From assembly GCA_000146465.1 (NCBI GenBank), contig CP001948.1: DNA of 64,000 bases. One strand, written 5' to 3'. Under the pieces are notes generated by a model. It did no database searches and was not told the origin of the DNA. It saw nothing but the letters and a program-made list of their open reading frames with translations. Both the position numbers and the translations under genes were made by a program. Below, piece by piece: positions 31,965 through 61,229 of this stretch (the stretch's first letter is position 1; each line of letters starts with the position of its first letter).

Positions 31965-34900
31965 ATGCCAAAGGAAACAACAGAAATGATTTCCCAAGCA
32001 CTCAAGGATCCATCCTATCAGGAGAGACTGGTTGAGATTCTTGGATATGAGATGATGGAGGAAGTGGAGATGATTTGTGCAAACAAAGAGTACTTTGTTT
32101 CTCAGGAAGAGGTAGAGGACCACGGCTTTTATGTGGAGTACAACTTTCCAGAGTCCATTCCCATAGAGGTTGACTGTTCAGAGATTGTTAGTACAGATGT
32201 GATGGGGGGATACAAGAAGTACTTCGACTACAAGAAGTTCAACGGGGTCCAGTCAAAGGTGTTTAACTCGGCATACCAGAGCGATGGAAACATGCTGGTC
32301 TGTGCACCAACAAGCTCTGGAAAGACAGATATTGCATTTCTATGTGTTCTCCGGGCACTTGGTAAGGGAGACAAGGTTGTTTATGTCGTTCCGATGAGGG
32401 CATTAGCAACAGAAATAGCATCGAAGTACAGAAAGAAGCTTGGAGAGCAAAGGGTTGTGGAGTACACTGGAGACACAGAGATAAAGACAGAAGATGTGGC
32501 AAGGTGCGATGTCATAGTGTCAACACCGGAGAAATTTGATGTTGCAACACGAAGACAATGCAATGTATTCCAGAGCCGTGTTGGGCTTGTTATACTTGAC
32601 GAGGTTCACATGCTCCAGGACGAGAGGGGGCCTGTTTTAGAAGCGATTGTATGCAGAGTGCTTAGGTATGTAGAGCTCCGCCAAAGACCCATACGTGTTG
32701 TGGGGCTTTCTGCCACACTCCCTAACTATGAGGATGTGGGAAGGTTCCTCAGGGCCGAGCATGTGTTCAGCTTTGACCAAGGATATAGACCTGTTCCACT
32801 GAAGATGCAAGTTGTTGGAATGAAGAAGAGGAGCAAGCTCCAGCTCGAGGATGAGTTTCTAAAAAAGAAGGTGGAGAGATATCTGAGTGATGGAAAGCAA
32901 GTTCTGGTGTTTGTGCATTCCAGGGGAGAAACTTCTAGGACAGCAAAGCTTTTGAGTGATGATGGAGAAAGAAGAGATGTAAAGGGAGGAGTAGTGGGAG
33001 GAATACTTTTGGAACTGGCTCGAAGGGGGGTTGGGATACACCATGCTGGACTTCCTCGGAAGATAAGACTGTATATGGAAGATGAATTCAAGGCAGGGAG
33101 GCTAAGGATATTGGTTACGACATCAACCCTGGCATGGGGAGTCAATCTTCCGGCATATGCAGTGGTGATCAAAGGAACCAGATTTTATGACTCTTCTCAG
33201 GGAGGATTTAGGGATGTAGGCATTCTGGATGTATTACAAATATTTGGAAGGGCTGGGAGGCCTCAATTTGATTCCAGGGGAGAGGGATGTCTGATAACGA
33301 CAGGGGACAAGATGGACCATTATGTGTCTCTCCTCAAGAACAGCAGGGATGTGGAGAGCAGGCTGCTTCGACATGTTGCAGATATCATGAACGCAGAGAT
33401 ATACCTGAACACGATTGAGGATGTCAACACGGCTGTGGAATGGCTAAGAAGTACTTTTATGTATGTCAGGATGTCCAAAAATCCTATGTGTTACGGATTG
33501 AGTAAAGAAGATTTGTATGATGAATACAAGGCCCTGTCGGATTATGCTATTCTTACATGTAGAAGGCTAGAGGAGTGCTCGATGATAAGAATACATAGAA
33601 AAAGGATTGGAGACTTTCAAACATGGAGATTCTGTAGCACGGAGTATGGGAGGATTGCCAGCATGTATTATCTATCTCATGAAACCATGGAGAGGTGGCT
33701 GAGGGAAATAGAAGATATATATGACGAAGACTCCATACTTAGGCTTTGCTTTGAAGATAGGGAGCTTTCGGTGCTGGGATGTAGGGAAGAAGACGAAGAA
33801 AGTATCAAGGAGCTTTGTATGGAGGTTGGAGTTAAATACGAGGTGTCGATAGGATGTAAGCTGATGGTTCTTGTGAAAGCACATATCAAAAGACTCCCAA
33901 TCCAAAGGTTTTCACTTGCATGTGACAGTGAGTATGTTGTCAAGAATCTCCGGAGGATTCTGATGGGGCTATGCCAGATCCTGATATTCCAATGCAAGCA
34001 TCTATTTGTTGCAAAATGTTGCATACTATTGAAAAGAATAGAAAGGCAAAAGGAAAAGCCTTGGGATGCCAACAACAGAGTCGAAGTAGATCTTTTCCGA
34101 GTTCTTGGAATGGTTAGAATGGAAGTTTCCCTGAAGATGAAAGGGGAATATTGGATATTTGTATGGGATGGAGACTCTGCCATCTACTCGGGTCTCTTTG
34201 CACATCGAGCAAATTTATTCATCAAAACAAAGTGTGATGTGTTGAGGATTGAGATTGTTGCACGAGATGAATGGGCAAGAACAGAGGAGAGATGCTGGGT
34301 TAGCCGAGACACAAGTACAAGATCATTGTACCATAACGGTGTCCATGAGTGTGATCAAGGATGGTCTTTGGTAGGAGAGAAGCAAAGCTGTTCCCATTTC
34401 TGTGTGATAAAGTCGCTTTCGGATCTTTCCGATATGATGGATGGATGGAGATTGGACGGAATCTCCGAGCCTGGAAGATTGATTATGACAAACAGAAGGA
34501 TTAATTTTTCGAGTATGAGGAAGGGAGACATAAGCATAAAAGGGTGGGATAAGAGAGATCTAAGGGATGCTCCTGGTGTGAGTGTGGGCTACTTAATGCC
34601 CGAGGTTCCGCCGAGATATGTTAAGTATATTTTGTGTGATTTTTCTCTTCGGATAAAATTTGTGCAAATCGACTGCATGCTGTTCAGGGAGAGGCTTCAG
34701 CTCATGAGCTCCTGTATCACATTCATGGATAACTACGAAAGCAAGAAAGTTGTCATAGTGGCACCAGACACAAGTGACATGGAAAGAACAGCACAAGACC
34801 TCGAGACTAGAATGACTCTGAAGAGTTTGTCTTGTGGAAAATGTGATGTGAAAGTAAGGCGTGGAAGACCTATGGCAGGAGACACAGGGATATTTGTAAC

Positions 34901-48104: not shown

Positions 48105-48380
48105 ATGGATGCAGAGGCATTGCTGAGAAACGAAGAAAATAAGAGTTTTTTGATGAAGAGACTTGAGGATCTAATAGAGAAGCATGGCTTTGACAGGAGG
48201 ATAGATGAATTTGTGGAGAATCTTGTGGGAGCCAAGATGGCCGACGTCATAGATATCAACAAAGTTTTTGACAAGTTATATGATTTCGTGATTATGAATC
48301 TACCTCCAGAGATTCAGGAAACATTCTATCATGACGTAAGAAGCTTTATAGAAAGAAGCGTTGTAACAGAGGATCAATAA
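48105..48380 (+). CDS. ENY2/Sus1-like small helical protein (SAGA/TREX-2)
   Basis: 91 aa. The helix pattern LMKRLEDLIEKHGFDRRIDEFVENLV...VIDINKVFDKLYDFVIMNLPPEIQETFYHDVRSFIE matches the ENY2 fold pattern. Confidence 0.45.
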   Translation: MDAEALLRNEENKSFLMKRLEDLIEKHGFDRRIDEFVENLVGAKMADVIDINKVFDKLYDFVIMNLPPEIQETFYHDVRSFIERSVVTEDQ

Positions 48381-48452: not shown

Positions 48453-49811
48453 GTGTCCCTAGAAGTGGAAAAGGAAATGAAGAGGCGGGCTTACATCTGT
48501 TTCTTTCTTGGGATTGCAACCTGCGAGATCTTTTTAACAACCATAAGACCGATTGACAACCCTAATGTTCTTATGGTTTCTGGAAAAAACGTTGTACTCA
48601 CGGCGAACAGGGAGGACGAGATGGCCACCTTCCGTGTCGAGACCCAAGACAGGAAATCCAGGTTCCTTGGAATAAAGTTTGGGAAACGGAAGCATACTGT
48701 TCTCATATCACCGGGGGACAACCCGAATCTTTATATGAAGTACAGTAAGTCGGATGGGAGGCCTACCATGGGGAAGAAAAAGAAGTACTGGGAATACAAG
48801 GAGATGAAGGATGGAGGCTACATGCTTAGTTCAAGCAAAAACAAGTGTTTGGGAGTGGTTGGGAATAGCTTCAGGATCTCCGAGTGTGGAACTGGAAAAG
48901 GCCAGGTGTTTGTTTTTGAAAGGAGAGACTACAGCGAATCTTCAAGCACTTCTAATTTTGAAGAGCAGATTTCTATTTCTTCGGAGGTTCCCTTGGTTCC
49001 TCCGGTCTCTCAAACTTCTTTGGTTTCTTCAACTTCTCGGTCCTCTCTTGTTTCTTCAACTTCTCCAACCTCTCTAACCTCTCGGATTCCTCAGTCTTCC
49101 TTTGTTTCTCAGACTTCTCCAACCTCTCGGGTTCCACAGGCAATCCAGGCCAGCCAGGCTTTCGAGGCATTGTTTCCATTTGATGAAAGTAATGACTCCG
49201 ATAGCAATAGCGACGACATGAAGCCCGTGTTTATTAATCTGGATATGAAGGACAAAAAGACAAATACAGAAACCCAGGAAAGCAGTTCTCCCATTTCGAT
49301 TTCAACGATGACAGTTTATGTATCTGTCACCAAGTCTCTTTCCGCAGGAGCGGTGTCTTCTTCACCAATAGTGACGATCATCGACAAGTTTCCGCCTGTC
49401 AGTGCCAAACTTCCTCCAAACGTGACGCTTATTCGGAACAGGATTGCATCTTCCGAGGAATCGCAGTCTTCTTGCGAGTCAAGTGATTCTTACTTGGGAA
49501 ATGAAACAGTATCTCACAAAAGTTCCAGCAGAAGCTTAGGAGGAGCCAAGAACGATGCAAATCTGGACTTTGATCTTGAGTTTTATCCAGAGCTGGGGAG
49601 GCTCCTAGACGATAGTATCCGCAAAAAGAAAGAAGAAGAGCTTCGGAAGGAAGCAACAGCTAAAAGGGCTCGAGGGAATCCTCTGGGCGAAGAAAGAAAA
49701 GACGGAGAGTTCTTTAGTGCCTTGGCATATTTAGATACCTCCATCCCAAATCCTTTACGCCAAAACCTAGCGGAAGCACAATCTGCCTGTGCAGACATTG
49801 GGCAAGTATAA
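48453..49811 (+). CDS. Secreted beta-trefoil (ricin-B-lectin-like) protein with a Ser/Thr-rich repeat stalk
   Basis: Signal peptide MKRRAYICFFLGIATCEIF. N-terminal domain with KCLGVVGNSFRISECGTGKGQVFVFE. Central S/T/P-rich imperfect repeats SQTSLVSSTSRSSLVSSTSPTSLTSRIPQSS... and an acidic C-terminus. Confidence 0.6.
   Translation: MSLEVEKEMKRRAYICFFLGIATCEIFLTTIRPIDNPNVLMVSGKNVVLTANREDEMATFRVETQDRKSRFLGIKFGKRKHTVLISPGDNPNLYMKYSKSDGRPTMGKKKKYWEYKEMKDGGYMLSSSKNKCLGVVGNSFRISECGTGKGQVFVFERRDYSESSSTSNFEEQISISSEVPLVPPVSQTSLVSSTSRSSLVSSTSPTSLTSRIPQSSFVSQTSPTSRVPQAIQASQAFEALFPFDESNDSDSNSDDMKPVFINLDMKDKKTNTETQESSSPISISTMTVYVSVTKSLSAGAVSSSPIVTIIDKFPPVSAKLPPNVTLIRNRIASSEESQSSCESSDSYLGNETVSHKSSSRSLGGAKNDANLDFDLEFYPELGRLLDDSIRKKKEEELRKEATAKRARGNPLGEERKDGEFFSALAYLDTSIPNPLRQNLAEAQSACADIGQV
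48990..49140 (+). repeat. Imperfect in-frame tandem repeats of ~27 nt encoding S/T-rich peptides
   Basis: Recurring units tcaaacttctttggtttcttcaacttctcggtcctctcttgtttcttcaacttctccaacctctc...cagacttctccaacctctcgg. Confidence 0.6.
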
Positions 49812-49845: not shown

Positions 49846-50502
49846 TTAATAAGGAGCCCTTCTAAGCCGGGTTATATCGACCACGCCTATAATTTTCTCT
49901 ATCTTTCTGAATATATCGTACATCTTGTGAATCATTTTACGGGTTCTAGCCTTTTCATTAAGCTTCAGCACGGCCTTGAGTGAAGGAATCATCACGAAGG
50001 TTTGGGAATTGTCTCCAGGATTGCAGTCTGTAAAGGAAAGTGCCCATCCGCTTACTCCCTCATAGTTGATTTCGTTTCCAACTGTAAGACACTTTCCTTC
50101 CGATATAAGCTGGAATTTCACACTGTTTGGAAGCCTTTTCAAGTAGATGGAGGACGGTGAGATCTTCATCCTCACGCCTTTCAGGGAGGAGTGAACGTCT
50201 GCTATTTCTATGCAGCGCTCCTTCTTGAGCTCCAGCCACACCTTCTTTGAAAAGCTCTCGTACTTCAAGTCAAAAACCTGGTTTTCCATCATCTCCTTAG
50301 AAAACTCAGAGAGTAGGGCTGGTAGGCTTATTCTTTCTGGATGGATGGTGTCAAACACGGTTAAGGGTTGATTCCGGTGCAGCACATTCAGCATCATTAC
50401 CCCGTCATAATCGGAGTTCCGAAGATGCCTATTGGACCTACCACAAGGCCCATATCCTCTTTGGAATGAATATGCAAATGCAAAGAATAACAACAACATC
50501 AC
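49846..50502 (-). CDS. Secreted beta-trefoil (ricin-B-lectin-like) protein
   Basis: Signal peptide MMLLLFFAFAYSF, and KCLTVGNEINYEGV...CNPGDNSQTFVM shared with the other lectin-like paralogs. Confidence 0.5.
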   Translation of the reverse strand: MMLLLFFAFAYSFQRGYGPCGRSNRHLRNSDYDGVMMLNVLHRNQPLTVFDTIHPERISLPALLSEFSKEMMENQVFDLKYESFSKKVWLELKKERCIEIADVHSSLKGVRMKISPSSIYLKRLPNSVKFQLISEGKCLTVGNEINYEGVSGWALSFTDCNPGDNSQTFVMIPSLKAVLKLNEKARTRKMIHKMYDIFRKIEKIIGVVDITRLRRAPY

Positions 50503-50568: not shown

Positions 50569-50933
50569 TCAGAAGCAGGGCTGCTCCCCAGAGACATAAG
50601 TCAAGTCGGAAGAAGAAAGTTTATTTCGCATTGTACTGCTTGACCATGTTAATAAAAACCTTCCCTGCAGGCGTAGATGGGCATATGACCCTCCTGCAAA
50701 AATACGTCTGCATGACTTGCATTTCCATATTCCAACTGCCGTTCTCTTCACACTCTTCTTTCCACATGCCTCACAGCTGTACTTGGCCCTCTGTGTTTCA
50801 AGAACCGCTTTCATTCTCTTACGGAGAGTCGATCCATATCTTGCTCCGAAAGAGCCTGCAATCCCTACCTTCTTGGTTTTTCCCTATAAGTTAGTCTGCT
50901 TCAGAATCCCCTTGGTCCCAAGTCACTTACCAT
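50569..50933 (-). CDS. RPL43: Ribosomal protein eL43 (L37a), two exons: ATG at 50931-50933, intron 50884-50930, exon 2 from 50883 downward
   Basis: Spliced product [69 protein letters not shown] matches the eL43 N-terminus and C4 zinc ribbon. The track ORF lacks the first 27 residues. The 3' portion appears frameshifted; see findings. Confidence 0.85.
50884..50930 (-). other. Spliceosomal intron, 47 nt, immediately after the start codon of eL43
   Basis: mRNA sense: ATG|GTAAGTGACTTGGGACCAAGGGGATTCTGAAGCAGACTAACTTATAG|GGAAAAACC. The 5' splice site is GTAAGT, the branch point ACTAAC lies 5 nt before a 3' AG, and splicing restores the reading frame. Confidence 0.85.
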
Positions 50934-51274
50934 TTTGATGGGTAAAAAAAATTCTCCTTAAACCGCAATACTTGCAGGACACCTTCCAAGAGATGATGCA
51001 TCCGTCAGGAGCGGTCGTTTATCTTTTCCTCAAGAAATCCCTCCCCCGTCAGTTTCTTGAAACTTTCAATGTTCTTATTGATGCTTTCTATTAATCTATC
51101 TCCAAGTTCTATTTCAATTCCCTTTGCGGGATTAGAATTCAGGTGAGAAATAGCCAATCCTACGAGAGACAGAAGCATCCACATTGTTTACAGGCTTCCG
51201 TTACACTAAATAGTCTGTGTTTTGGATCATTCATTTCAAAACTCGATACATCCAAAAACAACTTGGGTTTACTA

Positions 51275-53839: not shown

Positions 53840-54724
53840 TCATGATGTGCTGGAATCTCGAGATTTCTTCTTCTTTTTATCAACCTTCAGAAGAGACTTT
53901 GCAAGCTTCTTCTTGAAACGAGAACCAAGGCGCTTCATTTTCTTCTTAATTCTTGGCTTCTTGAACCTCACGTGTTCCATAAACTCTTCAAGGGATTCTT
54001 CATCACTCTTTGGCTCCCGATGCTTCTTTTTTTTCTTTTCTTTCTTTTTGGTCTTCTCTTTCTTTTCCTCTCTTTCTTCTTCCTCTTTCTTCTCATCCTC
54101 CTCTAGATTTTTCTTGCATCCAGGCTCCTCGTCATCAGTGGTTTCCGAGGAGATTCTTTCCTCTTGGTCCTTTTCCTTGGTATCTTTCTCGCCATCCTTA
54201 TCTCGATCCCCATGCAAGCCTCTCCTGCTCTTCTCTAGATATTCGCATCTATCTCTAAAAACTTTGATTTGGAATCGGAATTCCAGAGACTCTCTTCCAG
54301 GTGGCATGCACTCTTTGAACTTCACTTCTCTACCCACATCTGCCATACATAGTCCACTGTCATGCCCTATCACAATACTTTTGCACTTTGTTGGTGACAC
54401 AAAATGGAACTCAAATCCAGATGGAATATCCTTTCCTCTTCTTTTGTGTCCTCTATAGATTGTCATTCTTCTATATTTGCTATCTACAGTTAGATATCCT
54501 TCCCTTGTATAAAGCTTAAATCCATAAGGCACATTTCTATTCCAATCATATCCAAAAACATAGTCTTCTCTTCTCCGCTTGTCAACAGGCTCTAACCTCA
54601 GAGTTCTTAAGTTAAGGTATCTTCCACTCATCATGGATTTGATTGCAATCCCCATCCTTGACACTACCATTCCCAGATGCAATAGGATATAAACATTCAT
54701 GGCACCTTCCGAGATGCAAACCAC
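53840..54724 (-). CDS. Hypothetical protein with a K/E-rich low-complexity C-terminus
   Basis: Globular N-terminal ~170 aa followed by a (K/E)n tail encoded by the aaga/ctt-rich tract at ~53,990-54,130. Confidence 0.4.
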   Translation of the reverse strand: MVCISEGAMNVYILLHLGMVVSRMGIAIKSMMSGRYLNLRTLRLEPVDKRRREDYVFGYDWNRNVPYGFKLYTREGYLTVDSKYRRMTIYRGHKRRGKDIPSGFEFHFVSPTKCKSIVIGHDSGLCMADVGREVKFKECMPPGRESLEFRFQIKVFRDRCEYLEKSRRGLHGDRDKDGEKDTKEKDQEERISSETTDDEEPGCKKNLEEDEKKEEEEREEKKEKTKKKEKKKKKHREPKSDEESLEEFMEHVRFKKPRIKKKMKRLGSRFKKKLAKSLLKVDKKKKKSRDSSTS

Positions 54725-56337: not shown

Positions 56338-57588
56338 ATGGAAGACATTCTTTTGAGAGGAATAAAGCAGAAGAAAAAGAGGATTCTAAAGGAGGAAGTT
56401 GAGTACAACGTCGATGGAGAAAGACTACCCCTTCTTAACACATTTGACAGTCTAAAGACAAAAGCTCCTTTTTCCTCTCCTCTTTTGGCCCAGAAGGTCG
56501 TTGTGCCGTATTTCATGAAGAAGTACAACATTATTGTACAGGCCTTTACTGGGAGCGGGAAAACACTATCGTACTGCCTACCGCTTGTCGAGACTGCACG
56601 AAACGAGAATCTTTTTGGAATGATACTTGTTCCTGGAAGGGCGCTTGTGAGACAAGTCTATAGGGTTGTAAGAGAAATCAAGCACAGGGAACTGGAGATC
56701 AAGGGGATCTACAGAGATGGTTCCGAGGACTTCTTTGTTGAAGAGGATGAAGAAGGGGGATTGGTTGAGAGGAGAATCGACAGTAGAACACAAAAGGAGA
56801 TTGCTGGGTTCCCTCGGGAAGGAGGAAGAATTGTAATAGGAACGCTCCCGTCGATTCTTAGTTTGATGGATCTGTTTGAAATGAAAGCTATCACACATCT
56901 TATTATAGACGAGGCAGATCTCCTGATAAACCCCGAGACCATCGATGTTTTTGCATCTATTCTTCAGGAAATAGACGTGGAGAAGACACATGTCGGATGT
57001 TTTAGTGCTACTATGAACGAGTATGTTGAGCAGGTTATAGAAACAGTGAAGAACATCACAAAGATACATATTGTGTCGAGGAAACATATAGACCATGAGT
57101 TTGTATTTGGGACAAACAGAAAGATCAAACACCTATCGCTGCTACAGATCGTTGCAGATGGAATTGAATCACCGACCCTGATATTTGTCAGAAATGAAGA
57201 GACCGGGGAGTTTTTAAGTAAGCTGCTGGATAGAAGCGGAGTTTATAAAGAAGGAAGCGGGGAAAGCGCAGAAGTCCTTGACGACTTCCGGCTAAAGAAG
57301 ATCTGGTACCTGTTTGCAACAGATGCATTGAGTAGAGGAATAGACTTCTATAACATTAGGAGTGTGATAAACTATGATCTTCCAGATACTAAGACCCAGC
57401 TTGTGCATAGGGTTGGAAGAGTCAATAGAAATTGCCAGGGACAAAAGGTGTATACAATCTATTCGGGCGAAGACTTTGGAAGAATCTCCCTTGTTGCCGA
57501 GTTTCTAGAGGAGAACGGACATGAGATACCAAGCCACATTACTCGGATTATAGAAAAGAGCCGGAAAAGGATTGGCAGGAGGAGCTAG
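56338..57588 (+). CDS. DEAD-box ATP-dependent RNA helicase
   Basis: Motif I AFTGSGKT, motif II IIDEADLL (DEAD), motif III SAT, motif VI HRVGRVNR. A CCC motif lies upstream of the ATG. Confidence 0.85.
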   Translation: MEDILLRGIKQKKKRILKEEVEYNVDGERLPLLNTFDSLKTKAPFSSPLLAQKVVVPYFMKKYNIIVQAFTGSGKTLSYCLPLVETARNENLFGMILVPGRALVRQVYRVVREIKHRELEIKGIYRDGSEDFFVEEDEEGGLVERRIDSRTQKEIAGFPREGGRIVIGTLPSILSLMDLFEMKAITHLIIDEADLLINPETIDVFASILQEIDVEKTHVGCFSATMNEYVEQVIETVKNITKIHIVSRKHIDHEFVFGTNRKIKHLSLLQIVADGIESPTLIFVRNEETGEFLSKLLDRSGVYKEGSGESAEVLDDFRLKKIWYLFATDALSRGIDFYNIRSVINYDLPDTKTQLVHRVGRVNRNCQGQKVYTIYSGEDFGRISLVAEFLEENGHEIPSHITRIIEKSRKRIGRRS

Positions 57589-58109
57589 CTCCTTTCCTCC
57601 TCTTCGGAGTCTGTGCAGAACGAATCCATATCGTCAACCATCTCTGCTATCCGGGTGCTAACGGGGTCTACGAGTCCTTCCACTTTCCCAACAAGATCCA
57701 TTTTCCTGCGGATTCCATTTGAGTTTTTGGACACCCGAGTAGTACTGTCTATCTGAAACAGCTGGGATGCACTCCTGAAGTCGGATGGATCGAAGCATGG
57801 AGACATCTCCAAGCCTTCTTCTGTGTAAGTTAGACATTGGTCCTCCGAGCATATGATTGTGCCTAATTGCCTGTCGTACACATTCCAGTAAAACTCATCG
57901 TCGCCAATGCTTACTGAATCATTTCCAGATATATACAAGTTTCCTATTGTTATTGCATATTTTCCCTCTTTTTCCTCGATGCTTGTGTTGATCAAGGGAA
58001 TTCTGCCAACCTTTAGTTCTAGATCCGGCTTGAGGAATAGCCTTATCTCCACCGGATTCTTAATATGCCCACAAGCACCCGATAATAAAAGTAGAAATAT
58101 AAATTCCAT
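57585..58109 (-). CDS. Secreted beta-trefoil (ricin-B-lectin-like) protein
   Basis: Signal peptide MEFIFLLLLSGACG, and QCLTYTEEGLEMSPCFDPSD...QLFQI shared with the other lectin-like paralogs. Confidence 0.5.
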   Translation of the reverse strand: MEFIFLLLLSGACGHIKNPVEIRLFLKPDLELKVGRIPLINTSIEEKEGKYAITIGNLYISGNDSVSIGDDEFYWNVYDRQLGTIICSEDQCLTYTEEGLEMSPCFDPSDFRSASQLFQIDSTTRVSKNSNGIRRKMDLVGKVEGLVDPVSTRIAEMVDDMDSFCTDSEEEERS

Positions 58110-58179: not shown

Positions 58180-58938
58180 TTACCACAACTTCTTACAAAA
58201 CGGGAAACTAAACCAAGGCATGGAGAAGCTGGAAGGACCGAACTTGGGCCTCCTCCAATTAAAATCCCATAACTTGCGAAGGACATCCTTTACATCATCC
58301 TTTCCATCAAGGTCCGGAAGGTTTTTTTTGGCATACTTCGAGAAGTCATTCTTGTCCTCCAGGTTCTTCTTAATCTTTTCTACCTCATCTCTATTTTTCC
58401 TTCCCAGGTTTTCTAATTTCTTTTTGAGCTTGAGCTGTTGCACCATTTCTGCCTCAGTTCTAGGCTTTGCGTTTAGATCGACCGAATCCAGACAACTTTC
58501 AACACCCATATCTTCAAAGAGGAAGACATGACTTCTACTTCTCCCGTTGCACCTCTCCAACACAAGTTTATTCTCATCCCTAGTGCTAAGGCAATATCCT
58601 TCCTGGGATACAGTGAATCCATCTCCACTCTTGGATATTTCCCAGAAATCTATGCTGTCCTCGCATTTAAGAAGATCCCTACCCTTCCGACACAACCAGG
58701 AGTCTCCAACACGAATCTTAAAGACTCGTCCATTCCTGTTGATCTGAGATCTTGTGTTATGTCCGTAAGTTAAATTAAGCTCATCCACAGCTCTAAAAGG
58801 GTTTGATCCAAAGTCTCTTTTGAGTTCGGAGACAAGAAGATGATACTCTGCTGCCAAGATTCTGATAGGTTTGTTGGTAAATGAGTCGAGGTATAGCGGA
58901 TAGGAAAATGCCATTCCAAGAACCAATATCAGAATCAT
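58180..58938 (-). CDS. Secreted beta-trefoil (ricin-B-lectin-like) protein with a lysine-rich C-terminal tail
   Basis: Signal peptide MILILVLGMAFSYP. DSWLC, DFWEI, YCLSTRDENKLVLERCNGRSRSHVFLFE, and a K-rich tail KLKKKLENLGRKNRDEVEKIKKNLEDK. Confidence 0.55.
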   Translation of the reverse strand: MILILVLGMAFSYPLYLDSFTNKPIRILAAEYHLLVSELKRDFGSNPFRAVDELNLTYGHNTRSQINRNGRVFKIRVGDSWLCRKGRDLLKCEDSIDFWEISKSGDGFTVSQEGYCLSTRDENKLVLERCNGRSRSHVFLFEDMGVESCLDSVDLNAKPRTEAEMVQQLKLKKKLENLGRKNRDEVEKIKKNLEDKNDFSKYAKKNLPDLDGKDDVKDVLRKLWDFNWRRPKFGPSSFSMPWFSFPFCKKLW

Positions 58939-59047: not shown

Positions 59048-59887
59048 CTAGAAAATTATAGGATCCCTCCTAACCAGATTTTTACTTCTGTAATGGTGAG
59101 GAGAATGATGATGATCTAAGTGCACCCTTTTGACCCCAGAATGGGGGTTTCTTGTCAAGACATGTGTGACAGTCACTTCTTCTTCCTTTGGCAAGGTTTC
59201 TTCATACAAGGGGAAGTCCGCTTCGTCTCCTGAATAGCTGGAGACGTCCCCTTGCTGAGAAAAGGAAGTGTTTCTATTCTTTTCTCTCTTAATGGGGAGG
59301 ATGATGTTCTTATTTACATCTCCCTTTGTCTTTATCCTGATGGATGAAGGACATTCACTCTCTGGATGAAATATATTCACATTTGTTGTCATATTCTTTC
59401 TCCCTTCGTTCCTCAGAAGGGACCCTATGTCTCCACATCCCCCGAGGTCTGCAAGCTTGAAGCTAAATATCTGATCGTCCGTATTGACACAGATCTTCAT
59501 CTGAATGGACTCCTCAGGACCCTTGGTAATGCATTTGTTGTCCGTAGAGATTGTGTATCCAAACTCCTTTCTGTCTATGTCCCAGGGTCTTTCTTCTTTG
59601 CACTTCACCACCGAGTTTCCATCTTTGCATATGTTATTTTCTCCAAATATCACAACATACTTCTCTCCAGACTTCACCAGCCTCGCCCTTGTAACAAACT
59701 TGTACTTGCTTGGATTCACATACTTGCTGTGAGACACTAGAAGCCCATTTTCCTCTTCTAGCCCAAGAATCTGTGTGGGATAGGACGAAAAAAAAACCTT
59801 GATGTCTTTTTCAACAAACTCCTCTAACTCTCTGTCCCTTGCGCTAACAAAGATTGACATAAACATCAAGATCAAACCCGGTTCCAT
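59048..59887 (-). CDS. Secreted beta-trefoil (ricin-B-lectin-like) protein
   Basis: Signal peptide MEPGLILMFMSIFVSA at an internal ATG. YVVIFGENNICKDG...KCITKGPEESIQMKICVNTDDQIFSFK shared with the other lectin-like paralogs. Confidence 0.55.
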   Translation of the reverse strand: MEPGLILMFMSIFVSARDRELEEFVEKDIKVFFSSYPTQILGLEEENGLLVSHSKYVNPSKYKFVTRARLVKSGEKYVVIFGENNICKDGNSVVKCKEERPWDIDRKEFGYTISTDNKCITKGPEESIQMKICVNTDDQIFSFKLADLGGCGDIGSLLRNEGRKNMTTNVNIFHPESECPSSIRIKTKGDVNKNIILPIKREKNRNTSFSQQGDVSSYSGDEADFPLYEETLPKEEEVTVTHVLTRNPHSGVKRVHLDHHHSPHHYRSKNLVRRDPIIF

Positions 59888-59993
59888 GCTTTCCAGAACG
59901 GCTTTTCTTTTGTATAAAATCGTTGAAACCACAGAGGCCTGTCTCACCCCATCATGCGATGAGAAGAAACTCTGTTCCAGACCTGAAGCATTA

Positions 59994-61229
59994 TCATTGA
60001 AATAACTTTGGCTTTCCCTTTGTCTCCCTGACACAGAGGAGTACAAATACACTGAAGACTAGGCAAAGACCTCCGTAAATCCCAGACATAACTTGTGCAT
60101 GGTTATAGTTCAGAGGATGTAGCAAGGTTGTTGTTATGAATCCAAATAGCCAATTGAAACTGACTCCAAACTCAAAGCCGGTGGATGTATATCTCGAGGG
60201 AAATATCTCTGCCGAGATTATCCATGGGATTACTGCAAGCCCGAGGTTGAATCCAATAAAGCAGATTATCACTCCTAGAAGGGGAAACCTGTCCATGGCA
60301 AGAGGGATCATTCCAAATGCCATTATTGTCGAAGAGATGATCGACATTGTTTTCCTCCCAAATCTATCAACTATCAGTCCACAGAATGCAGTTGTTATAA
60401 ACGATACAAACAAAGAAGAACTTGTCATCAGGTTGGGATATTTGCTACTCGAGAATAGGCAAGACTGCTGAAACGTCAAAAAGTTGATTCCAGACAGATG
60501 GTGGAAGGCGTGGAATACTACTGTTATTGCAATCGACTTTGCGGATCCAGGGGTCCTGATTAATTCCTTCATGGATGGCCTGGTGTTGAATGTATTTGGT
60601 GTTCTTGGATGGGGACTTCTAATAAATGCAAATCCTATCGTCTGGAGAACAAGGAACACAAGCATTGCAACGAATGGGATCCTGTAGCTTTCCTTGTTTC
60701 CAAAGAAGTTGAACATGGAGCCTACAAAGAGTCCCCCAACTATCCCGACTGGCTGGAGACTGGCCAGGAACCCCCGGATATGGTCTGGAGCAATGGCATC
60801 TATATAAGATGAAATTGATCCAGAAGTGAGGTCGAGTGCAAATCCAAGTATGAATCTGGACGTTAAATAATGAGCAAAATCCAATGTCATCAGCGGGGTT
60901 GCAAACACAATCATATATATGACGTTGGCTACGATCAACTTCACTTTGTCGTTAGTGAAAGACACAAACTTGAAGATAATTCCTGCAATAAATGCACCTA
61001 GGAAGTGTGTTCCTGGGATTAATGCTTCATGGTATATGGTGTAGGTCTTTCCAGTAGACTCTGTAAAGTGATCTTCTATCAAGCCATAGAGACAGGACAG
61101 GCTTATCAGAGAGACCCCAAATGTAAAGGCTGTCAGAACAACCAAGATCAGGCTGGCAAGCTCTCTTTTGGAAAAGACTTGGTGTTTCATCGATGCTTGG
61201 AGATGTCCCAAAACTTTTATATACTTCAT
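59994..61229 (-). CDS. Major facilitator superfamily transporter (sugar/solute)
   Basis: About 12 hydrophobic helices and the MFS loop motif VDRFGRKTM (D-R-x-G-R-K). The start could be the ATG at 61229 or the one at 61190. Confidence 0.7.
   Translation of the reverse strand: MKYIKVLGHLQASMKHQVFSKRELASLILVVLTAFTFGVSLISLSCLYGLIEDHFTESTGKTYTIYHEALIPGTHFLGAFIAGIIFKFVSFTNDKVKLIVANVIYMIVFATPLMTLDFAHYLTSRFILGFALDLTSGSISSYIDAIAPDHIRGFLASLQPVGIVGGLFVGSMFNFFGNKESYRIPFVAMLVFLVLQTIGFAFIRSPHPRTPNTFNTRPSMKELIRTPGSAKSIAITVVFHAFHHLSGINFLTFQQSCLFSSSKYPNLMTSSSLFVSFITTAFCGLIVDRFGRKTMSIISSTIMAFGMIPLAMDRFPLLGVIICFIGFNLGLAVIPWIISAEIFPSRYTSTGFEFGVSFNWLFGFITTTLLHPLNYNHAQVMSGIYGGLCLVFSVFVLLCVRETKGKPKLFQ

Follow-up and report, generated by a model that had tools for sequence, protein, structure and literature searches.

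The repeat-bearing gene and its coding frame

The DNA considered here is a 64,000-nucleotide stretch of Encephalitozoon intestinalis chromosome VII (the window), and the feature in question is a serine- and threonine-rich repeat tract within one of its genes, Eint_070940, which encodes a secreted ricin-B-lectin-like (RBL) protein. The coding sequence runs from 48477 to 49811 on the + strand (444 amino acids and a stop codon), and its product is 100% identical to Eint_070940 of E. intestinalis ATCC 50506 (ADM11857.1). The tract, as delimited by periodicity, alignment and composition, occupies 49005..49139 (+), corresponds to residues 177-221 and encodes VSQTSLVSSTSRSSLVSSTSPTSLTSRIPQSSFVSQTSPTSRVPQ. 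An original prediction made from the DNA letters had described imperfect tandem repeats at 48970..49160, forming a mucin-like stalk between a lectin-like domain and an acidic C-terminus; the tract proper lies inside that interval, and the peptide quoted there is exactly residues 178-221. The tract turns out to be a degenerate but statistically real repeat that was inserted into the protein in the E. intestinalis lineage.

The reading frame assumed by the original prediction is sound, as the open reading frame (ORF) is uninterrupted over 444 codons, has conserved domains flanking the tract on both sides, and has syntenic orthologs in five other species. An antisense ORF of 68 residues, rich in K, E and R, covers 48973..49179 (-), but it was rejected as a gene since it lies wholly within the conserved and expressed + strand coding sequence; it is a mirror-image artifact, because it is the strand-opposite of the TCT-rich tract.

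Signal peptide and trefoil head

The N-terminus of Eint_070940 carries a signal peptide of approximately residues 1-19, MKRRAYICFFLGIATCEIF (48477..48533, +), which overlaps the sole hydrophobic 19-mer of the protein, found at residues 4-26, and the profiles of isoelectric point (pI), charge and hydrophobicity likewise predict that the only hydrophobic segment is the N-terminal one. The SignalP value for Eint_070940 is 0.78, and construct pBEL3011 fused its first 40 amino acids to green fluorescent protein (GFP) (bioRxiv supplements of PMC11972355); all 15 N-terminal constructs of that study gave GFP secretion (PMC11972355). The prediction of a secreted protein is therefore supported both by the N-terminal hydrophobic segment and by the published secretion of the fusion.

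Residues 20-150 (48534..48926, +) form a basic domain (pI approximately 10, net charge +13) that is predicted by AlphaFold2 (AF2) and Foldseek to be a β-trefoil of the ricin-B type. When residues 16-156 were modeled with an alignment of six orthologs, a mean predicted local distance difference test (pLDDT) score of 81.9 and a predicted template modeling score of 0.78 were obtained, with 12 strands, and comparison of this model with the PDB gave template modeling scores of 0.72-0.77 to HA17/HA33 (botulinum), CCL2 (4uso) and MPL (4ion), both of which are fungal lectins, FGF and IL-18/33. The top structural neighbors are all β-trefoils, and since they include the non-lectins FGF and IL-18/33, the predicted head is best described as having a lectin-like fold, as had been proposed for the N-terminal domain, with carbohydrate binding being only putative. 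Eint_070940 was previously listed as the 13th of the 14 RBL proteins of E. intestinalis, with residues 16-156 folding as a ricin B domain only when the signal peptide was removed together with a region predicted to be disordered (PMC11972355). This behavior is reproduced here, in that the full-length AF2 model is poor and the model of residues 16-156 is confident.

Recognition of the head from its sequence is much weaker. There is no Pfam match above cut-off, the nearest being CCL2-like with an E value of 0.0023 (18.4 bits against a cut-off of 27) and Ricin_B_lectin with an E value of 0.042; four of the six orthologs match a trefoil Pfam family weakly, the best at 8.9e-05, and all fall below the cut-off. 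The (QxW)3 motif is represented by remnants only, QVF in the gamma and YW in the beta repeat, and a sequence-profile search of the PDB with the head returned only sub-threshold hints of a trefoil. Even the neighboring paralog Eint_070950 is aligned to the trefoil profile by hhalign with a probability of only 8%, so that paralogy is barely detectable by sequence.

The disordered spacer and the C-terminal module

The full-length AF2 model, built from the six-sequence alignment, has a mean pLDDT of 34.7 and is informative for disorder only. Residues from approximately 150 to 370 have pLDDT values near 25 and no secondary structure, and thus some 220 residues are predicted to be disordered. The first part of this region, residues 151-176 (48927..49004, +), is an ancestral acidic, Ser-rich linker with a net charge of -5, alignable with the orthologs and with pLDDT below 30. 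The repeat tract follows, and immediately after it comes an acidic patch defined by alignment and charge, residues 222-249 (49140..49223, +), which reads ...FDESNDSDSNSDD... and is SSDSDSDSS-like in the orthologs. The variable spacer ends at the invariant motif PVFINL, residues 250-255 (49224..49241, +; invariant columns P250-L255), which is still recognizable in distant homologs.

Beyond PVFINL, a conserved TxTVxVxxT motif (residues 277-285; 49305..49331, +; invariant T277, T279, V280, V282 and T285) lies within an S/T-rich disordered half, and this region reads TVYVSVTK in Eint_070940. It is followed by a YPELGRLL motif and a predicted charged helix at residues 370-398 (49584..49670, +; invariant Y370-G374, L376 and L377), the helix itself (residues 371-398) being a low-confidence AF2 prediction. 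The region C-terminal to the tract has a pI of 4.7 and a net charge of -10, which agrees roughly with the acidic C-terminus originally proposed, but its conserved motifs and charged helix make it more than a plain acidic tail. Over the whole protein, hydrophobicity analysis found neither a glycosylphosphatidylinositol (GPI)-anchor signal nor a C-terminal hydrophobic segment, the C-terminus, ...AEAQSACADIGQV, being hydrophilic.

Periodicity and composition of the tract

The tract can be read as five 27-nt (9-residue) units with starts at 49008, 49035, 49062, 49089 and 49116 (49008..49142, +, by the 27-nt register), encoding SQTSLVSST, SRSSLVSST, SPTSLTSRI, PQSSFVSQT and SPTSRVPQA. Tandem Repeats Finder (TRF) reports a period of 27, with 2.5 copies, 78% matches and a score of 87 at 49008..49075, together with a period-9 array at 49052..49083; it recognizes the first 2.5 units only. 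This is the highest-scoring tandem repeat of the entire 64-kb window, and a score of 87 was not matched once when the codons of the tract itself were shuffled 500 times, nor in 500 local shuffles, and was matched in one of 500 shuffles over the whole coding sequence. The identity between nucleotides 27 positions apart is 0.60, compared with 0.37 ± 0.045 in codon shuffles (z 5.2; 0/5000 shuffles), and the result is still 0/5000 when the maximum over lags is taken; at the protein level, autocorrelation at lag 9 has a z of 4.7. The repeat tract is thus confirmed as real, with a periodicity that exceeds the expectation from composition, and the tandem-repeat statistics that had been proposed as a check bear out the roughly 27-nt imperfect repeats of the original prediction. 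A search of the 64-kb window found no further copies of the tract.

The organization of the repeat is hierarchical, with a 9-nt base and super-periods of 27 and 54 nt. Autocorrelation is raised at lags of 9, 18, 27, 36, 45 and 54 nt and depressed at the other multiples of 3; because all multiples of 9 nt are raised, the base period is taken to be 9 nt, i.e. S-x-x, with a serine at every third residue. The peaks at 45 and 54 nt are explained by a higher-order copy of 54 nt (18 residues), in which SLVSSTSPTSLTSRIPQS corresponds to SFVSQTSPTS---RVPQ. The longest exact repeats are of 16 nt, one pair being 54 nt apart (49059..49074 and 49113..49128) and another, read from the unit sequences, 27 nt apart (49023..49038 and 49050..49065). 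The units themselves are degenerate, with nucleotide identities of 52-78% between them, and serine is largely retained at unit positions 1, 4 and 7. The pooled proportion of synonymous differences between units (pS) is 0.50 and that of nonsynonymous differences (pN) is 0.33, which we take to indicate weak constraint and an old age of the tract.

In composition, the tract is 53% S plus T and 9% P, as expected from its description as S/T/P-rich, and has no D or E at all, whereas the ancestral linker on each flank is acidic. It is the most S/T-rich 45-residue stretch among the real genes of the window. One antisense ORF of 168 residues (33677..34183, -) is serine-rich and exceeds the tract in S/T content, and was set aside as an artifact within a larger conserved + strand ORF. 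The coding strand of the tract is 75% pyrimidine, and all 17 of its serine codons are TCN (13 of them TCT), whereas in the rest of the gene AGY accounts for 19 of 52 serine codons. The exclusive use of TCN argues for amplification of a single DNA seed rather than convergent selection for serine.

Stability of the tract among contigs and assemblies

Repeats are classic places for assembly error, and it might be supposed that the tract is a misassembled repeat, that it is read in the wrong frame, or that the antisense 68-residue ORF present here is the real gene. We regard an artifact of this sort as extremely improbable. In addition to the open + frame with conserved domains on either side and the evidence that the gene is expressed (below), exactly this protein is encoded by five contigs, with four NCBI protein accessions. 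Over 7,335 nt, a comparison of the window with assembly GCA_051312775.1 shows 0 mismatches and a single indel, which is at 50679, outside Eint_070940.

The original prediction had also expected the tract to be prone to repeat-number polymorphism between isolates, and this expectation is not supported. No length variation was seen on the five contigs, and in the second assembly the tract has the same sequence, though this is a weak test, as the two assemblies are one base apart in 7.3 kb and the five contigs are possibly not independent isolates. No protein variants of Eint_070940 were found in a collection of 15 billion proteins, and it is the sole member of its 90%-identity cluster; scans of metagenome contigs of the Joint Genome Institute, using a protein pattern and an exact 29-mer flanking the tract, gave no extra E. 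intestinalis alleles; and the ortholog, compared in three versions each from E. cuniculi and E. hellem, varied by substitution but not in length. With degenerate units and exact repeats no longer than 16 nt, high instability of the tract is unlikely, and because the units are degenerate and no variation exists among the contigs carrying the protein, the tract would make a poor typing marker.

An insertion specific to E. intestinalis

Eint_070940 was compared with E. cuniculi ECU07_0990, E. hellem EHEL_070970, E. romaleae EROM_070940 and the orthologs of two relatives from Sequence Read Archive assemblies. The shared gene order is Rpb5, diphthamide synthase, a 91-residue ORF, the Eint_070940 ortholog, a 217-residue RBL paralog, L37ae and POB3/SSRP1. 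In protein and codon alignments of the six syntenic orthologs, approximately 44 codons are present in E. intestinalis alone, in place of a short xHVxDKS segment. If the spacer is counted from the last trefoil strand (QVFVFE) up to PVFINL, its length is 101 residues in E. intestinalis, compared with 54-57 in the five orthologs and 40-86 in four more distant homologs, including that of Ordospora colligata. These four were retrieved by a profile search that, run exhaustively over 1.84 billion representatives, returned only eight members, indicating that the family is narrow. The added stretch repeats itself internally, which shows that it arose through duplication in the E. intestinalis lineage and not through loss in the others. 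That the tract is an insertion found only in E. intestinalis is evident from these sequence alignments, and it is a new result that was overlooked in the original prediction.

Two relatives have independent small expansions elsewhere in the disordered S/T-rich half. In E. cuniculi there is a duplication, SLTKSVIK/SLTKSV, present in all three versions examined, and in O. colligata there is the series STSVLI/STSVLT/STSIST, which suggests that slippage is recurrent in this region across the family.

We consider it most probable, at roughly 60%, that the tract arose by slippage, as an expansion confined to this lineage, within the disordered spacer of a secreted β-trefoil protein of the RBL (PTP4/PTP6-like) type, and that the added length matters to the protein. 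The main rival explanation departs from this solely on the last point, and holds that a neutral slippage expansion has been tolerated in an unconstrained disordered linker, having no role of its own and only incidental glycosylation. We think this unlikely, but there is much that is consistent with it: the tract is missing from all five orthologs and all the distant homologs, conservation within this fast-evolving protein (36-45% overall identity among orthologs) is lowest in the linker, the units have decayed to a state in which pN/pS is approximately 0.67, the restriction of serine codons to TCN suggests that the tract originated by mutation rather than by selection, and other lineages have their own small expansions at other sites. 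Against neutrality, the tract is still in frame and free of stop codons despite substantial divergence of its units, the serines at unit positions 1, 4 and 7 have largely been kept, and the complete lack of acidic residues, where the linker is otherwise acidic, may reflect a constraint on composition, though none of these three points is decisive.

Relation to other repeat-bearing secreted proteins

The fungal adhesins Als, Flo and Epa have an N-terminal ligand-binding or lectin domain followed by an O-mannosylated, S/T-rich tandem-repeat stalk, and it is slippage or recombination that creates and alters these repeats. Eint_070940 is similar in having a secreted, N-terminal lectin-like head followed by S/T-rich repeats, without any homology being implied, but its head is a predicted β-trefoil rather than a PA14 or Ig-like domain, it lacks a GPI-anchor signal, its units are degenerate, and its tract is at least ten-fold shorter. 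The Pro/Thr/Ser domains of mucins share with the tract a high content of S and T (and P), tandem repetition and predicted disorder, but the tract has only 45 residues and 9% proline. Mucin-type O-GalNAc glycosylation is not known from microsporidia, and the known microsporidian O-glycans are mannose-based. The term "mucin-like" therefore describes the tract only by analogy and not by membership.

A closer comparison is the central repeat region of PTP1, which is also a repeat in a secreted, sporoblast-stage Encephalitozoon protein. The repeats of PTP1 are longer and near-perfect, and their copy number is variable between isolates, whereas the tract of Eint_070940 is degenerate, is identical on all contigs that carry it, and is found in a protein with a lectin-like domain. 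In addition, PTP1 is proline-rich (PMC7040029), unlike the tract. Since it lacks a GPI signal, is low in proline, consists of degenerate units and has shown no polymorphism, the tract belongs neither to the fungal adhesin stalks nor to the PTP1 type of repeat region.

The closest relatives are the other microsporidian RBL proteins, the paralogs of PTP4 and PTP6, which likewise have a signal peptide and a single β-trefoil followed by a low-complexity tail, and whose expression also rises, along with that of the polar tube proteins, in cluster P4 of late sporoblasts (PMC11972355). Eint_070940 belongs to this secreted group by its fold, signal peptide and expression, although not by Pfam thresholds. 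It differs from the others in that its tail is unusually long (approximately 290 residues) and S/T-rich and contains the species-specific repeat insertion.

Expression and predicted O-mannosylation

A literature search with four locus tags (Eint_070940 and its orthologs) matched only a single-cell RNA sequencing paper (PMC11972355). Eint_070940 is 2.8-fold upregulated in cluster P4, with a mean expression of 5.3 compared with 1.0-1.4 elsewhere (bioRxiv supplements of PMC11972355), and 12 of the 14 RBL genes are upregulated in P4 alongside PTP2, PTP3 and PTP4 (PMC11972355). By that paper's arithmetic, these 12 RBL genes include both of those of the Dol-P-Man O-mannosyltransferase type (PMC11972355), and an O-mannosyltransferase belongs to the microsporidian core gene set (for the microsporidian mannosyltransferase, see PMC3879972). 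PTP1 is O-mannosylated by experiment and its repeat region is strongly different between species (PMC7040029). Because S/T-rich secreted proteins of the PTP1 type are O-mannosylated in Encephalitozoon, and because the mannosyltransferase is both part of the core set and co-expressed, the tract is itself most likely O-mannosylated, a modification that we consider plausible by analogy.

It might be argued from the same comparison that the tract is an interaction module, either with its mannosylated form serving as a ligand of host mannose-binding receptors, as proposed for PTP1, or with its S-L-V and S-F-V segments engaging in β-type self-association during assembly of the polar tube or spore wall. 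The O-mannose residues of PTP1 have been reported to mediate host attachment (PMC5413088; PMC7040029), hydrophobic residues stand at regular places in the units of Eint_070940, the gene is co-expressed with those of the polar tube proteins, and the STSVL repeat of the Ordospora relative is similar in composition. We nevertheless give this possibility little credence, as nothing links Eint_070940 to the polar tube surface, AF2 places no strands in the tract (at low confidence), and the tract is short and species-specific.

Proposed origin and role of the spacer

In the explanation that we favor, the expansion of a disordered spacer, a TCT-based 9-nt unit encoding S-x-x would have been amplified first, and the resulting 9-nt array would then have been duplicated in blocks of 27 and 54 nt, with the copies decaying later. 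The outcome is the placement of 45 uncharged S/T/P/L/V residues inside an ancestrally acidic, Ser-rich linker, so that the basic trefoil head is separated from the conserved C-terminal PVFINL/TVYVSVTK/YPELGRLL module by 101 residues instead of approximately 55. The protein is produced in late sporoblasts together with polar tube proteins and protein O-mannosyltransferases, and the tract would be O-mannosylated in the secretory pathway. A tract so modified may form a stiffened, protease-resistant and extended spacer that adds roughly 10 nm of reach. It might thereby keep the trefoil apart from whatever the C-terminal module attaches to, with the reach being roughly doubled.

Several considerations weigh against this explanation. 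Because the tract is missing from every ortholog, it is not required for the core function of the family. The pN/pS between units is compatible with near-neutral drift, and the tract is short relative to true mucin or adhesin stalks. It also holds hydrophobic L, V, F and I residues that would be superfluous in a pure glycosylated spacer. Finally, the literature yielded no glycosylation, localization or binding data for Eint_070940 or any of its orthologs.

A stronger version would hold that the tract is an adaptive, heavily O-mannosylated and recent species-specific gain in a putative lectin associated with the polar tube or sporoplasm. If so, the tract would present mannose to host mannose-binding receptors or extend the reach of the trefoil, and it could contribute to the tropism of E. 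intestinalis for enterocytes and macrophages, making it a gain of the invasion machinery. We give this version very little credence. Taken as a whole, the tract is an ordinary low-complexity spacer in an RBL gene that, together with its trefoil domain, has already been published, and the value of the observation is modest. What is new is a statistically real, species-specific repeat that doubles the spacer between head and body, which provides a small, clean case in which the linker of a microsporidian secreted protein was lengthened by slippage even in a very highly compacted 2.2-Mb genome. The tract is, moreover, a candidate cluster of O-mannosylation sites for work on this RBL protein.

Neighboring genes

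Six of the 14 RBL genes of E. intestinalis are apparently clustered between about 48.4 and 60 kb of the window, the last two being candidates. Eint_070940 is followed by 070950, which encodes the 217-residue paralog (49846..50499, -), by 070990 (53840..54700, -), whose product is another RBL-domain protein with a signal peptide, and by 071030 (57585..58109, -). The two candidates are a 252-residue ORF with a weak Ricin_B Pfam match (58180..58938, -) and the ORF at 59048..60052 (-), which by gene numbering is probably PTP4 (Eint_071050). The only other tandem repeat of the window, at 54024..54091 with a TRF score of 60-76, lies in Eint_070990 and encodes on its coding strand a K/E-rich tail, EEDEKKEEEEREEKKEKTKKKEKKKKK. 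The RBL paralogs thus differ widely in their low-complexity tails, that of 070990 being K/E-rich and that of 071030 acidic.

Just upstream of Eint_070940 is the conserved 91-residue ORF (48105..48380, +), which has sub-threshold Pfam matches to EnY2 (transcription factor e(y)2/Sus1) and PP2C_C, each with an E value of 0.008. Five of the six loci have a called gene of 87-91 residues in this position, and E. romaleae is the one in which no gene was called.

The indel at 50679 falls within the L37ae gene (approximately 50621..50934, -), where the window has GGG and GCA_051312775.1 has GGGG. The GGGG version reads ...AGGSYAPSTPA, as expected for L37ae, and the window copy goes out of frame, so the window assembly probably contains a sequencing error at this homopolymer, as opposed to a real frameshift in an essential gene.

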